DNA of 20,000 bases, taken from the IMG/VR virus record IMGVR_UViG_3300035682_000026. One strand, 5' to 3'. This DNA is from an uncultured virus (IMG/VR IMGVR_UViG_3300035682_000026). Taxonomy: Duplodnaviria; Heunggongvirae; Uroviricota; Caudoviricetes. The notes below the pieces were generated by a model. The model saw only the letters and a program-made list of their open reading frames with translations. It ran no database searches and was not told the origin of the DNA. Positions 3,707 through 14,196 of this stretch are shown here, piece after piece (within the stretch, counting starts at the first letter, position 1; the number at the start of each line of letters is the position of its first letter). The translations under genes and the position numbers were made by a program.

Positions 3707-5146
3707 TTATACTGTAATCGCAGAGTAACGCTCTGAATCAATTACATTCATCATCATTGAGTATGGACTCATATCTTTTCCACCCAATAGATTTGATAAT
3801 AGTGATGGCGAAAATCCACTAACGAGGCAAGTCCCATTTTTATCAAATTGAACTGGTTTGTTAGAGTCGTTTCTAGAATGGATATTCCAGTAAACAATTT
3901 TTGGCATCACATAACCTGCTTCAGCATACAATTTTTCAAAAGTTTCTTGTGCAGTAGAGTCCCAATTTCCTCTAGTACCAGCATTGAATTCCATATCCGA
4001 AAGGATAAGAATCATTGTTGGCATTTCACTTTCTTGAACATTGCTATCAATAGCTTTTTTCAAAATTAAATTAAATACAGCTTCAACATTAGTTGACATA
4101 TCCCATGCAGCGTTTTCTAATTGACTGTATCTTTCAGAAAGAGAACCTTTAAGGATTTGTAATTCTGGTCTGTTTGAGAAAGTAATAAACGCATCTTGAA
4201 ACATACCTATATTTCTTTCAGATATGTATAATCCCAATGAGATTGCTACATCCATACATGTTACACTTTGGCTGTTACCAGCAGAGCATGACATAGACCC
4301 AGAAACGTCAACAACTGGAAGGAATCTTTCATTGTTAGACTCCAAGAAGTTTGGCAATGCGTTCCATTGAGCGTTAGCACCTTTCACATTGTCTTGTTTA
4401 AGGTTTTTGATAACATCATATGGGTACAAAGCACCAGCATTGATTTTAGCTTCACCTTTTTCAACACTTGTTAAGTATTCTTGAAAACGAGCCAAGTCGT
4501 TTTTAGAAAAGGCTTTCATCAAATCACTCATTGCTTTTGAAGGCAATTTAGAGTATTCTATTTTAGTCCATTCTCTAGCACACATCAATTGCTCAACAGT
4601 GTTAGAGTTTTCAACAAGTAACTTACGGTACTCTTTTGGAGATAACCCTAAGTGTTTTCTAAGTGTATTAGCTTGTCTTTTAGCATCACGGCTAGCAACG
4701 TTTGGACGTGGCATCCATTTGCATGCTAACCCATTTTTAGCGTTTAACGCTTCAGTGATTATAGTTAATGCTTGATTCTCCAATGGAGTACCAAATAACA
4801 CTAACATATCATCCCATCTACCAAATTCTGAAATAAGGTGTAGGTTTTTACCTAATACTTCTGTACGGTTCTCAGCCAAGTAAGAGATTATATCTTTAAA
4901 TATTTGTCTTTCACCAGCACCACCACGTACATCTCTGGCCCAAAATAATAAACGCATAGCAGTCAATGGATTTTCTCCAAATGCTTTCGTAAATACATTA
5001 ATTAGACGAGTTTTGTCAGCACCTCTCATTGCACCAATCTGGAAGAATAAATCTACACAGTGGTTTAATGATGACGAGTTAGTAACCATACCGTTTTCAG
5101 TAAGTGAATTTTTAGTTTGCATTGCAGATAATAATGAATTTCCCAT
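3707..5146 (-). CDS. DUF2828-family Ro/TROVE-like protein with C-terminal vWA domain
   Basis: TENG N-terminus, ARDVRGGAGER, FGRWDD, KWMPR, KINAGALYPYD, MIDAS DVSGSMS, STN, ILSDMEF, IVYWN, VSGFS. Confidence 0.9.
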   Translation of the reverse strand: MGNSLLSAMQTKNSLTENGMVTNSSSLNHCVDLFFQIGAMRGADKTRLINVFTKAFGENPLTAMRLLFWARDVRGGAGERQIFKDIISYLAENRTEVLGKNLHLISEFGRWDDMLVLFGTPLENQALTIITEALNAKNGLACKWMPRPNVASRDAKRQANTLRKHLGLSPKEYRKLLVENSNTVEQLMCAREWTKIEYSKLPSKAMSDLMKAFSKNDLARFQEYLTSVEKGEAKINAGALYPYDVIKNLKQDNVKGANAQWNALPNFLESNNERFLPVVDVSGSMSCSAGNSQSVTCMDVAISLGLYISERNIGMFQDAFITFSNRPELQILKGSLSERYSQLENAAWDMSTNVEAVFNLILKKAIDSNVQESEMPTMILILSDMEFNAGTRGNWDSTAQETFEKLYAEAGYVMPKIVYWNIHSRNDSNKPVQFDKNGTCLVSGFSPSLLSNLLGGKDMSPYSMMMNVIDSERYSAITV

Positions 5147-5181
5147 AACGTTAAATTTTAAGTTTGTTTTTTAATTGAGTG

Positions 5182-5212
5182 CAAAGATATAACATTTATA
5201 CACTAATACCAA
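5182..5212 (-). promoter_or_regulatory. Bacteroidota-type promoter for DUF2828 gene
   Basis: TTG (5212-5210), 20 nt, TATCTTTG (5189-5182). Confidence 0.75.
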
Positions 5213-5229
5213 GTTTTTTTTGAATTATT

Positions 5230-5843
5230 TTAAATAAAATTTCTAACGTATTGATTTCTATGGTATTTACATACACCTTTTTCTTTAATTGCAGCTATAT
5301 GTGATGGTGATAAGTATCCTTTATTGCTATCCCAATCATATATTGGGAATAATTGATGTAACTTAACCATATATTCATCACGTCTAACCTTAGCAACAAT
5401 TGCTGCAGCGGCAATCGATAAATAAGTATCATCACCTTTAGGTACTAATTCAACTCTAATATCACCAATATTATCCCAAACGGTTCCATCTAATAATATA
5501 TAATCTGGTGTTATTGATAATTCGTCAATACATTTATGCATAACTTTGAACGTGGCGGGATTTATGCCAAGTTCATCTATATCAGATACAGAACCAGCAT
5601 TACAAGATATGGCTAACGCATTATCAATAATTAATTGGTATGCTTCTAATCTTTGTTTTTCCGTAAGTTTTTTTGAATCTCGTAATAACGGTGATGAAAA
5701 ACCCTTAGGTAATATCACAGCAGCAGTTACTACTGGACCAGCACCACAACCTCTACCAATTAGCCCACCTCGTCAATGCCGCAGATAAAATCTAATTCGG
5801 CTAGACGAGGTGGAGCATATTCTAAAATTTTATTTAATTTCAT
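5230..5843 (-). CDS. rnhB: Ribonuclease HII, discontinuous: 27-aa ORF 5843-5760 plus main frame 5757-5230 (about 201 aa if the 8-nt gap is skipped)
   Basis: MKLNKILEYAPPRLAELDFICGIDEVG* then, in another frame, GRGCGAGPVVTAAVILP..RDSKKL..LLDG..KGDDTYLSIAAAAIVAKVRRD..NKGY..HR. Confidence 0.9.
5763..5816 (-). other. GC-rich mRNA hairpin in the 5' rnhB segment ending at the last sense codon
   Basis: CCACCUCGUC (5813-5804) pairs with GACGAGGUGG (5774-5765); nested GCCG/CGGC and AGAU/AUCU stems. Confidence 0.75.
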
Positions 5844-6084
5844 TTCTTTTTTTAATTATATAATCATAAATTCCCCAACCAGATACTAGAACCCAAGTAG
5901 CCTCTAAAATTATAAATGGTGTATATTTTATTAGAATTGAGGCGATGCACGCTAAAATACCACCAAATAAGTTTAGTAATATATAAAAAATATTATCATT
6001 GTCTAATTTATCAACAATGTTTAAAACAAAGCCAAATAACATCATTGTTACACCTATTGAACCTATTATATCATTTATTTCCAT
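5830..6084 (-). CDS. Small 3-TM membrane protein (CBU_0592/PQ-loop-like)
   Basis: Three hydrophobic helices; IGSIG, Y..LN..G and PFIILE..W pattern. Confidence 0.7.
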   Translation of the reverse strand: MEINDIIGSIGVTMMLFGFVLNIVDKLDNDNIFYILLNLFGGILACIASILIKYTPFIILEATWVLVSGWGIYDYIIKKRNEIK

Positions 6085-6088
6085 AATG

Positions 6089-6118
6089 CAAAGTTACATA
6101 AATAATTTAAACTTACAA
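6089..6118 (-). promoter_or_regulatory. Bacteroidota-type promoter, possibly leaderless transcript (membrane gene + rnhB)
   Basis: TTG (6118-6116), 19 nt, TAACTTTG (6096-6089); ATG 4 nt downstream. Confidence 0.65.
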
Positions 6119-6349
6119 CTATTCTTCTTCTTTTTTTATAAATTTAACAACAATCCCATCAAAATCAGCTTCAAATTCATCAGTAAGTATTGGGTTATCA
6201 GTAATTGGATTGGATTTATAAAATAACAACTCATTCATTGCTTTATGATTTTTTGGTGTTAACTCATAAGTTAAGGTTAACCCATTTTTGTAAATTGTTT
6301 CATCATCTAGTATTGATGTTACGGTTTCTATTAAATTTTCGTATGTCAT
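6119..6349 (-). CDS. Hypothetical protein
   Basis: 76-aa ORF packed 1 nt from upstream gene. Confidence 0.8.
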   Translation of the reverse strand: MTYENLIETVTSILDDETIYKNGLTLTYELTPKNHKAMNELLFYKSNPITDNPILTDEFEADFDGIVVKFIKKEEE

Positions 6350-11610: not shown

Positions 11611-14196
11611 TTATTGTTTTTCTGTACTACTAACTTGTTTATCTATTTTGTCAATAATAAATTGAGATACCTTAGAAATGATTTCTAAGTTATTTTGTAT
11701 TCTTTCTTTGTTTGCTTTCCATAAAACTAAATATGTTGCATGGTGAGCTACTGGAATACCATAATGCTTCAACACAACGTAAGAAACACTTTCAGCTTGT
11801 AATTCTTGTAATTGATTTTTTTCTTTACCTTCACCATTATCGATAAAATATATAGAAGATTTTTTCCAGTGCATTAGTTCGTGAGCAATCTCGTGAATAG
11901 TAGTTGATAATCTAGCTGCACCTGATACATCTGATGATATATTAATATGGTCACCAGCACTATAACCTTTTTCTCCACCTTGTGCATCGCTTTGAGTTAC
12001 TCTAATACCTAAATCAGTAGCTACTTCAGATACAGCACCAAATAATATATCTGCAGTTTCTGATGGTGTGTTATCACCCCACCATTGTGGTGAATCTGGA
12101 ACATCACCTCTTTCATCAATAGGCTCTGTATCGCTAATGTCAAAAACATTAACCGCTCTAAATCTAGTTATTTGAGGTCTATTTGTCATACCCATTTGAC
12201 CCACTAATGCGGTTGTTTCGTCATCGTATTGAGTCATTTCTGGTTTACCAGCTGGTGCCAATACTTTGATTGCTTTAGCACCTTTTTTGACTCTTCTAAA
12301 TTTAGATTCCCATAATTTAAATGAACCAACTTTTGTTGCGTCTGGTCTTTGAATGAAAATAAGCATTCTATTATAGAAACTATAACTGTGGAATTTAGAA
12401 AAGAAAGTTAAATATCTTCTAATTTCTGCTGATAAAGCAGCTTCATCAGTTGCATTAGCTAAATCCATAATATATTGTTCAATTCTAGCTTTTAATAATT
12501 CTTTATTATCAGCTGTTGAACCTTCTACCGCATCTTCTAGGTCTTCTAATTCACCTATAATATACTCTGCTTTATTTATTAATGTAAGTGTTTTTTTTGC
12601 AATTTCTAATTTATCAGCATCAATAACCCAATTTGTACCATTCCAATTAAAACCATTTTGTTTTAAAACAGCTTTATTGTGAAATGTTTCTTGACTAGCA
12701 GCTCTACCTTCTAAATCTGATAATACAATAAGTTTACCTTGATTTTTATCATGTTGTAATTTTAATGCTTCACGCATTAACCCTTCGTTTAATGAAGGTG
12801 CATTTATGTTACCACTAGTTTTTTTAAGTTTTACAACATTATCAACAGCACCTGTACTACAACCACCGTTTTGAGCTTTTTTATTGTTATTTAATTTTGT
12901 ACAATCATCTAATTCAACAAAGGCACCACCAGACCATTGAGTTTTGGCTTGTGCTTTAGTTTTTTTTTTAGGTTCTTTAAATTCACCATTTCTACCTATG
13001 TTGGCAAGTCCTGGTGTGTCATATTGAAAATTACCAGTACTAGCAATAGTCGATTCATAAACAGTTTCGATTTTTCTTTTAATTGGTGTTGTACCCATTG
13101 GAGCTGTAAAAGCACCAGATGAACCACCAGCAGCACTAGTCATTTCATCTAAATCTAATTCTGTTTGTTTAGGGTCATTCCATTCACCATGTGGATGTTT
13201 AGAACCCATTGGTTCTCTAGATGCTAATTCTTTAGCTCTACGAGCTTGTATTTTTTTTTGAAGACTTTCCATATCTTCAGGAGTTCTTTCAGGATATTCA
13301 TTGCTAAAATCTTCTAGTCCTTCACTTAAACCAGACATGATAGTTTTAACTTGTTCAAGTTTTTTCATGAAAAATGGATTTAAGGGATAGATTTCACCTA
13401 ACTCATCAATCAACTCAATATTTAAAGGGATAAGAATTTTAGGTAATTCACGTTCTTTCTTATTAAGAAAGAAATTAATATCATCTTCAGTCATTTCACG
13501 ACCTTCATAATCAACACCATTATCAAAAAAATCTAACAAGAAAAATTCAGTGCCTTGGTTAAGTATTGCAATACCATCATTATATACAAAAACATCGTAA
13601 TCTGTATTGTTTTCAATAGGTTCTGGGTCTTCTTGATTTGATGGGTTATCAGGACTATGTGTATCGTATGTATCTAATTCTTCTTCTATTTCTTCCATTG
13701 GTTCACCAACAAATTCTCTCATAGTCTCTTCAATAGCAGCTTTAGCTTCTTCTTTGGTACCAATACTTTTAGGTACGATATAATTACGCCCTTTTTTAAC
13801 AATATGTCCTTTACTAGTTAAATACTCACATATTTCTTCGGATGATTTACCTTTTTCTCCAACCCAATAATCCGAATTAAATTCAGGTGTATAACCATAT
13901 AGATGTTTTAACAAATCTTTTATTTCTGTACTAATTTTATCAGTACCACCTTTTTTAGCTTCGTCTATATTATGTTTTGCTCCTAGTGGTTTTTGTTGTG
14001 CTCTAGGTAAATCAGTATTAGGTGCTTTAATATTAAAATTTTCATCTTCAGTTACTGATTTAATATCTTTACCAGCAAATGCTTGATTAAATGACTTTTG
14101 TACTCTATCAATACCACCTTTAATGCTAGATTCTTTAATCAAACCAGCTTTAATTAGTATATTATATTGTTCTTTTGTTATTTTAAGTTTTTTCAT
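11611..14196 (-). CDS. Multidomain protein: low-complexity N-terminal half plus ArdC-N-like ssDNA-binding domain and zincin metallopeptidase
   Basis: FSKFHSYSFYNRMLIFIQRPDATKVGSFKLW..RRVKKGAKAIKVLAP..VFDISDT; IHEIAHELMH..ELQAESVSYVV. Confidence 0.85.
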   Translation of the reverse strand: MKKLKITKEQYNILIKAGLIKESSIKGGIDRVQKSFNQAFAGKDIKSVTEDENFNIKAPNTDLPRAQQKPLGAKHNIDEAKKGGTDKISTEIKDLLKHLYGYTPEFNSDYWVGEKGKSSEEICEYLTSKGHIVKKGRNYIVPKSIGTKEEAKAAIEETMREFVGEPMEEIEEELDTYDTHSPDNPSNQEDPEPIENNTDYDVFVYNDGIAILNQGTEFFLLDFFDNGVDYEGREMTEDDINFFLNKKERELPKILIPLNIELIDELGEIYPLNPFFMKKLEQVKTIMSGLSEGLEDFSNEYPERTPEDMESLQKKIQARRAKELASREPMGSKHPHGEWNDPKQTELDLDEMTSAAGGSSGAFTAPMGTTPIKRKIETVYESTIASTGNFQYDTPGLANIGRNGEFKEPKKKTKAQAKTQWSGGAFVELDDCTKLNNNKKAQNGGCSTGAVDNVVKLKKTSGNINAPSLNEGLMREALKLQHDKNQGKLIVLSDLEGRAASQETFHNKAVLKQNGFNWNGTNWVIDADKLEIAKKTLTLINKAEYIIGELEDLEDAVEGSTADNKELLKARIEQYIMDLANATDEAALSAEIRRYLTFFSKFHSYSFYNRMLIFIQRPDATKVGSFKLWESKFRRVKKGAKAIKVLAPAGKPEMTQYDDETTALVGQMGMTNRPQITRFRAVNVFDISDTEPIDERGDVPDSPQWWGDNTPSETADILFGAVSEVATDLGIRVTQSDAQGGEKGYSAGDHINISSDVSGAARLSTTIHEIAHELMHWKKSSIYFIDNGEGKEKNQLQELQAESVSYVVLKHYGIPVAHHATYLVLWKANKERIQNNLEIISKVSQFIIDKIDKQVSSTEKQ

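Follow-up and report, generated by a model that had tools for sequence, protein, structure and literature searches.

A conserved RNA hairpin at a break in phage RNase HII genes probably belongs to a mobile cassette that is read by a short ribosomal hop

Programmed bypassing has been proven in very few natural settings. The MobA cassette is described, in the available part of the account by Manning and Atkins (10.1101/2022.08.31.505936), as confined to topoisomerase and as protecting against nicking, with VSR or GIY-YIG replacements occurring. The force that drives the bypass is the chief unsolved problem of gene 60 of phage T4, according to the available portion of 10.1101/2024.12.09.627546, and one model holds that pairing in the exiting mRNA pulls the message and drives the bypass (available parts of PMC5009743 and of Wills et al., 10.1101/2024.12.09.627546). 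As of 2016, no natural in-frame stop-hop was known, as stated in the available part of a review (PMC5009743).

The locus described here lies in the window, the whole stretch of 20,000 nucleotides that was analyzed from an uncultured virus (IMG/VR IMGVR_UViG_3300035682_000026). An RNase HII gene is split there within DEVGRG by 8 nt, and the frame of ORF2 differs from that of ORF1. The features of the interrupted gene are as follows:

5763..5843, minus strand: RNase HII ORF1, from the ATG at 5843 to GGC; 27 codons ending ICGIDEVG, with the first two catalytic carboxylates
5763..5765, minus strand: putative take-off codon GGC (Gly27); among the 16 interrupted alleles, 14 have GGC and 2 GGU
5760..5762, minus strand: stop UAA; UGA 7, UAA 6 and UAG 3 among the 16
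5758..5759, minus strand: 2-nt spacer; 0, 1, 2 or 4 nt in relatives
5755..5757, minus strand: putative landing codon GGU, making the hop 8 nt; GGN in 16/16
5230..5757, minus strand: RNase HII ORF2, 175 codons from GRG to the stop; a usable start before GRG is absent
5830..6084, minus strand: hydrophobic upstream ORF of 84 aa, its final codons (NEIK-stop) overlapping the RNase HII start

ORF2 matches Pfam PF01351 (RNase_HII) with an E-value of 2e-30 and 106.5 bits (cut-off 25.8) over profile positions 7-196, and a search of ORF1 alone with the same profile gave no match. The ORF1 motif was aligned to solved RNases HII via the uninterrupted relative L506, and DEVGRG is unbroken in the alignment of the solved enzymes. 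In RNase H2 of T. maritima, the catalytic residues include D18 and E19, and the 2'-OH is sensed through GRG (available part of PMC3025331). DE is encoded in ORF1 and RG in ORF2, and DE..GRG becomes contiguous in one polypeptide only if the gap is skipped. We assign a probability of about 0.74 to the whole explanation developed below, namely a mobile recoding cassette of endonuclease origin whose gap is hopped over by the ribosome with re-zipping of the hairpin.

Relatives were retrieved by protein and pattern scans and from one phage record, yielding 134 loci (the window included) that match ORF2 from its start; these include repeat fetches of one contig and were collapsed to 98 distinct alleles, at least 16 interrupted at the DEVG/RG site and at least 82 not. 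L248, an intact GC-rich gene whose match began late, was left out. L021 was counted as intact at the break site, though it is broken further on; its RNase HII gene (1501-2016) has several single-base losses in homopolymer runs, which are probably sequence errors. The interrupted alleles, 41-78% identical to the window's ORF2, were enriched by gap-pattern scans, fall into about three groups with nine in one clade, and are not independent. A protein-only scan with the window protein retrieved 23 relatives, none interrupted, and one with the L219 protein retrieved 37, of which 13 were interrupted. Pattern scans gave mostly chance matches: a narrower version of the GAC scan had one true match in four, the first GAC scan none among the matches listed and examined, and the genome scan none among those listed, which is not a test of absence; yields from the metagenome pattern scans are "at least" values. 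Across 401 Bacteroidota genomes the gap pattern matched seven times, never in RNase HII, and the intact pattern was present in 400, while the GenBank phage collection showed no likeness. A covariance model found a single site on the window's contig; a second match (G001) sits in a continuous ORF and was set aside as chance. L464 (LR756504.1, a 636-kb phage) carries DESGVG in place of DEVGRG in its RNase HII.

Compared with T4 gene 60 and MobA, as far as the available portions of their descriptions extend, the RNase HII element shares a Gly take-off codon followed by a stop, a Gly landing codon, an upstream stem-loop proposed to pull the mRNA, an SD-like sequence ahead of the landing site, a gap in a conserved catalytic region, several endonuclease families (GIY-YIG, VSR-like), and stepwise loss of the nuclease and then of the gap. 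Measured against the same portions, it differs in its host gene, which is RNase HII and not the topoisomerase II large subunit, with no sequence likeness seen; in its gap of 6-10 nt in all three frames versus 50 nt in gene 60; and in its take-off codon, which sits at the 3' foot of a single, large hairpin upstream and not within the 5' arm of a stem-loop at the A site. Gene 60 further relies on a nascent peptide of KKYK type lying 25-30 residues away from the P site, whereas ORF1, with 22-30 codons across the interrupted alleles, has no KKYK, and the RNase HII gene, unlike gene 60, is not otherwise split and has a probable Bacteroidota host. Three hallmarks of bypassing are found in the RNase HII alleles (a stop on the take-off codon's 3' side in 16/16, a gap length independent of frame and a conserved 5' stem-loop), and that of a homing cassette, a nuclease beside its modified target and absent from sister alleles, is present at the level of the family but not at the window's own copy. 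The element works like gene 60 and MobA but is not a member of their class, whose defining features it failed to show.

Three other systems, each compared on the available parts of its description, are less close. UUA-triggered bypass in a phage gene likewise has a short gap, Gly by the take-off region and an SD sequence proposed 5' of the gap; it depends on a rare UUA codon and is proposed to be regulatory, and those parts mention neither an endonuclease link nor a long hairpin. Synthetic stop-hops in E. coli (PMC5009743) use matched codons around a stop, with 9 nt yielding one residue, the exact layout of alleles L277 and L530; they are low-level and artificial, whereas the RNase HII case is natural and has a conserved hairpin. 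The byps of Magnusiomyces mitochondria are also mobile non-coding inserts that ribosomes skip with imperfect take-off and landing tolerated, but they measure 27-55 nt, place an unused sense codon in the A site of organelle ribosomes and occur at many sites per genome, whereas the RNase HII gap occupies one. In the literature searched, which included few subscription journals, no report of bypassing in RNase HII was found.

The original prediction described a hairpin with a perfect 10-bp stem and nested stems that ends at the take-off codon. Folding confirmed it on the minus strand:

5763..5816, minus strand: mRNA hairpin, MFE -29.1 kcal/mol, closing on the take-off codon GGC directly before UAA
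5804..5813, minus strand: 5' arm of the outer stem, CCACCUCGUC; 10 bp, Pro-Pro-Arg codons, complementary to the SD-like 3' arm
5765..5774, minus strand: 3' arm of the outer stem, GACGAGGUGG; Asp-Glu-Val codons and the first base of Gly, containing GAGGUG (5771-5766)
5778..5801, minus strand: inner stems and loop, less constant across relatives than the outer stem

On that strand, the inner GCCG (5801-5798) pairs with CGGC (5781-5778), and AGAU (5793-5790) and AUCU (5786-5783) enclose a UUU loop. An extra U-G pair that had been proposed is absent from the MFE fold, which instead has 5816-5815 paired to 5763-5764, with U5814 bulged out; the rest of the fold stands. Rare G/C-ending codons had also been read along the hairpin, and this is true of the 3' arm: such codons make up 7 of the final 8 in ORF1, against a GC3 of 0.17 in 54 contig genes and 0.07 over the 15 codons that open ORF2, and GGC represents 2% of Gly codons. 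The codons of the 5' arm, in contrast, end in A/U, its G+C coming from Pro-Pro-Arg. None of 200 dinucleotide shuffles of 5816-5763 folded as low (z -4.57). The synonymous-codon shuffles called for earlier gave the same answer under either codon model, with z -4.5 for uniform usage, z -9.9 for genome usage and 0/2000 as stable in each, and the hairpin therefore exceeds what coding needs.

Across relatives, all 16 interrupted alleles fold at -26.1 to -32.3 kcal/mol (z -3.5 to -5.4), and 79 of the 82 intact alleles are weaker than -19 kcal/mol. A z below -3 was found in two intact alleles, L476, which has the same helix and no gap, and L523, which forms another local helix. The prediction had named two outcomes that would speak against it, absence of the hairpin from other interrupted homologues and equal presence in uninterrupted ones; the hairpin is in 16/16 of the former and the same helix in 1/82 of the latter, which argues, as had been proposed, that the break is not a random indel. 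In all 16, the hairpin closes on the take-off codon, 2-7 nt (mostly 5) ahead of the landing codon. GAG is found in 16/16 interrupted versus 25/82 intact alleles, and GTG in 15/16 versus 6/82. Covariation, another suggested check, was present but modest: among 7 of the 16 interrupted alleles, pairing holds in 93.8% of cells and the covariation score is higher than in 499 of 500 shuffles, whereas 3 of 16 pairs changed on both sides, a number matched by 71 of 500 shuffles, and 7 of 16 never vary. It is close to certain that a conserved, selected RNA structure lies at a conserved break. Among intact alleles, L476, L477 and L478 have the full hairpin and a PPHL...DEV N-terminus with the gap absent, reflecting either precise gap loss or a state preceding the gap; in L479, L506, L001, L007, L019 and L016, an N-terminus of this type accompanies a hairpin that has decayed.

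A strong helix adjoining the gap, together with the GG repeat that flanks it, is also what hairpin-guided removal at the RNA level would display, whether by micro-splicing or by polymerase skipping between the repeats. An Rfam search of 5100-6200 gave no intron or ribozyme match (two chance matches fell below the gathering score, neither on the hairpin), and 8 nt is too short for a ribozyme. Splicing, moreover, needs no in-frame stop, yet one is present in 16/16, and the contig from RNA run X24 crosses the gap and retains it with no joint seen, which counts weakly because DNA may be in the library; this contig reads GGU for GGC. Removal from the RNA is thus very improbable.

The reading that best accommodates the alleles is a short programmed ribosomal hop over the gap, which, judging from the sequences, is likely to yield full-length RNase HII. 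A stop directly follows the GGY take-off codon in all 16 interrupted alleles, whose gaps measure 6 nt (2 alleles), 7 (11), 8 (2) or 10 (1) and so fall in all three frames; the landing codons are GGC 7, GGU 5 and GGA 4. In every one of them, the motif is restored if peptidyl-tRNA-Gly re-pairs once, at the second GGN. Since no single frameshift or readthrough serves all gap lengths, a hop is favored, and the recoding originally suggested for the break is supported in this form, the only single mechanism that fits. Take-off and landing codons are readable by one tRNA in 12 of the 16, the window (GGC to GGU) among them, and run GGC to GGA in four; matching across the interrupted alleles extends only to GG. 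Landing on GGY is not enriched (12/16 interrupted versus 55/79 uninterrupted, p 0.77). The start of ORF1, its open frame and its xGxDEVG motif are kept in 16/16 alleles, and ORF2 is open in all 13 that are full-length, with dN/dS of 0.015-0.30 in 10 interrupted pairs (one pair saturated). Because homing was recent in several pairs, these low values may predate the arrival of the cassette.

Ordinary recoding, worked out allele by allele, would suit twelve of the 16, in which the frame is +1, the A site holds a stop and an SD-like sequence stands 5'. It would comprise +1 shifting at GGC-U for gaps of 7 and 10, -1 for gaps of 8 and readthrough for gaps of 6, adding 2-3 residues, with the SD-like sequence or the hairpin as stimulator as in prfB. 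One conserved signal would then have to serve three mechanisms (-1 in two alleles, +1 in twelve, readthrough in two), and unconserved residues (N, E, R, S, EF, LI) would enter a loop whose length, that of DEVGRG, is constant in 82/82 uninterrupted alleles. By the rules of decoding, tRNA-Gly re-pairs poorly at GCU or GGG, the codons to which it would have to shift. We regard this alternative as improbable. Less probable again is a split enzyme, in which the 27-aa peptide and a re-initiated ORF2 would assemble as in endonuclease-split NrdA or topoisomerase. Split phage enzymes have precedent (available part of 10.1101/2022.08.31.505936), and an in-frame AUG within GAUGAG occurs in 8/16 alleles, a count that, however, equals chance (11 GAT x 12/16). 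ATG, GTG and TTG are all absent before GRG in the ORF2 frame in 6/16, including the window, which has AUU only, and the codon before GRG is a stop in two alleles; a divided protein is accordingly the most remote of the readings considered.

Under the hop, the ribosome would unwind the hairpin and then stall, its A site holding UAA and peptidyl-tRNA-Gly sitting on GGC, by which time the hairpin's top would have re-formed behind it. The GC-rich base would then zip, pulling mRNA out as the ribosome slides 8 nt, and the tRNA would re-pair at GGU, with decoding restarting at Arg to give a normal DEVGRG enzyme of 201 aa. This motor role, suggested by analogy, would match the exiting-mRNA pull model of gene 60, and, given a hop, re-zipping is rather more probable than not as its main driver. 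Pro-Pro lies 15 codons before take-off in 15/16 interrupted alleles and may be a mere by-product of the 5' arm; another main driver, such as pausing or nascent Pro-Pro, is unlikely. No strong nascent-peptide or A-site stem-loop signal of known type is present, and hop efficiency could for that reason be low.

Pairing with the anti-SD is likewise an unlikely main driver. The SD-like GAGGUG (5771-5766) does sit 8 nt ahead of GGU (5757-5755), as had been noted, and the 3' arm could pair with the anti-SD of 16S rRNA at -10.7 kcal/mol. The element would stand at the usual spacing only after the slide and is invariant among alleles, a hint in favor of an SD role. The original prediction was cautious on this point, and fairly so: Bacteroidia ribosomes sequester the anti-SD (available part of PMC7797042), and prfB frameshifting in Bacteroidia normally proceeds without SD pairing (available part of PMC10798248). 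SD sequences precede just 2 of 77 ORFs, both calls doubtful, and the five records examined contain no phage bS21, leaving phage-altered SD use without support. Any Shine-Dalgarno contribution to the hop is thus doubtful.

A link to homing endonucleases, absent from the original prediction, would explain why the gap exists. In the proposed scheme, a free-standing endonuclease targeting the conserved DEVGRG...AGPV region would spread together with a replacement 5' gene end, in which the gap spoils the target and protects the carrier; by analogy, the nuclease would cleave the intact allele and spare the gapped one. From the window's copy, the endonuclease would since have been lost. An endonuclease-like gene or remnant lies within 1.5 kb upstream in 13 of 16 interrupted versus 1 of 82 intact alleles, using three queries that all came from interrupted loci; the misses among the interrupted are the window, L485 and L325, which offers 122 nt only. 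An independent Pfam scan of 115 upstream ORFs of 78 intact alleles retrieved one GIY-YIG gene (L473), whereas 12 upstream ORFs of interrupted alleles, five fragments of a common neighbor having been left out, gave seven nuclease-type matches, one of them below the cut-off. A GIY-YIG/NUMOD3 ORF is directly upstream in L532, L530, L537, L538 and L541 and absent from their sisters L533, L525 and L545. In L217, a weakly DUF559-like ORF overlaps the RNase HII start (as a query in viral contigs, it matched only itself), and L218 has a NUMOD3/Vsr ORF on the opposite strand. These nuclease identities rest on Pfam and PHROG names. Beside the window's RNase HII there is no endonuclease; its upstream 84-aa ORF and the L217 nuclease both end NEIK-stop overlapping the RNase HII start, which suggests that the former is the scar of a deleted endonuclease. 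The GIY-YIG gene of L473 (762-1454, plus strand), of GIY-YIG/NUMOD1 type, is directly upstream of an uninterrupted RNase HII whose altered N-terminus (AALDEVGRG) is perhaps another escape from the nuclease.

In a maximum-likelihood tree built quickly from 97 ORF2 rows, L021 excluded, the 16 interrupted rows require 14 changes, at least nine of them forced by well-supported branches; shuffled labels average 15.1, so the clustering is not more than chance. L532, with the gap, and L533, without it, have identical ORF2 proteins. The ORF1 DNA of L338 and L152, and that of L541 and L537, is identical letter for letter, at ORF2 dS values of 0.82 and 1.19. In the three closest pairs of gapped and intact sisters, differences cluster in the first 30 nt past the landing codon. 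This clustering and the shared ORF1 fit a cassette that moves as a unit. The GIY-YIG cassette has GG(A/T)CCAG at its left edge in 8/9 interrupted alleles of that clade (L532, L541, L537, L530, L538, L462, L531 and L539, at 186-783 nt upstream of the landing codon), and the motif is present in 0/9 intact relatives checked. It resembles the Gly-Pro-Val codons of the RNase HII AGPV motif and may be a scar left where the insertion first occurred.

In another reading, the cassette would simply inactivate a dispensable phage gene, the host having its own RNase HII, and the hairpin would serve the endonuclease element, for instance as a stability or processing signal at the end of its transcript. Homing was recent in several pairs, and conservation of ORF2 need not mean present function; the gap is absent from most sampled relatives; and the sole RNA-run contig at the site, from X24 (depth 2.6), starts right at 5816, where the hairpin has its 5' foot, although contigs cannot show ends and the coincidence is possibly chance. 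Against a dead gene, ORF1 is kept in every interrupted allele and the landing GG stays constant while the spacer varies, and the nuclease-less window, L485, L462, L531, L539 and L277 retain hairpin, gap and intact ORF2. There is also no U-tract 3' of the hairpin, and the processing or autoregulatory roles that had been offered as alternatives found no support. An inactivating cassette is therefore judged improbable, if the least so of the competing readings.

In the RNase HII cassette, a single hairpin, a 6-10-nt gap and a stop would be all that is left of the system. Its natural allelic series spans gaps of four lengths, three different stops and landing codons of three kinds, besides a hairpin allele without a gap and sisters with neither, and opens the landing rules, the contribution of SD pairing and the exiting-mRNA motor model to direct testing. 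If the explanation is true, homing endonucleases have independently adopted ribosomal hopping for immunity a second time, and genes of this kind in phages are misannotated as truncated or dead. A broader proposal, which we put forward tentatively and at somewhat less than even odds, is a distinct class of minimal "translational introns": a 54-nt coding hairpin alone would drive efficient 6-10-nt hops on Bacteroidota ribosomes, natural in-frame stop-hops included, with landing at two of three matched bases tolerated and gap length set by the re-zipping push, and would serve unrelated homing endonucleases as an immunity device handed from one to another.

Contigs from runs X9 (5505-6028) and X13 (5738-5897) cross the break with zero differences, which rules out assembly error as its cause. 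A contig from X20 (depth 29.5) matches 5759-5845 with eight differences, of which the four listed miss the outer stem and two fall in inner stems; its two loose ends, just 14 and 30 letters long, were read by hand and hint at a gap of 7 nt and at an upstream ORF with an end like that of the L217 nuclease. At least half of the window's words are present in 22 of the 24 listed runs, which are from lake water, and eight of these are possible sources of the same DNA. The virus record holding the window comprises 62,756 bases, linear and estimated as 18% complete, and relatives of the window sit on contigs of up to several hundred kb. A TAnnTTTG-type motif, which we take to be a Bacteroidota promoter, occurs in 13 of 66 upstream regions versus 2.3 in shuffles and points to Bacteroidota as the probable host. 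The sequence ATATTTAT, a candidate phage promoter, lies within 40 nt of 9 of 66 ORF starts in the upstream regions of G000:C1 (1.4 in shuffles) and also occurs in the window.

No Gly or suppressor tRNA is encoded on the 63-kb contig; a tmRNA and ten tRNA genes, none for Gly, occupy G000:C1:33443-45091, and several free GIY-YIG/NUMOD3 ORFs are found elsewhere on that contig, one among the tRNAs. In the window and several relatives, RNase HII is followed by a 479-aa protein (3707-5146 in the window, minus strand) assigned to phrog_850, "RNA-binding protein", with DUF2828 and DUF7788. Farther away in the window, an 861-aa protein (11611-14196, minus strand) displays an ArdC N-terminal-like domain and, close to its C-terminus, weakly matches IrrE/M78 peptidase.
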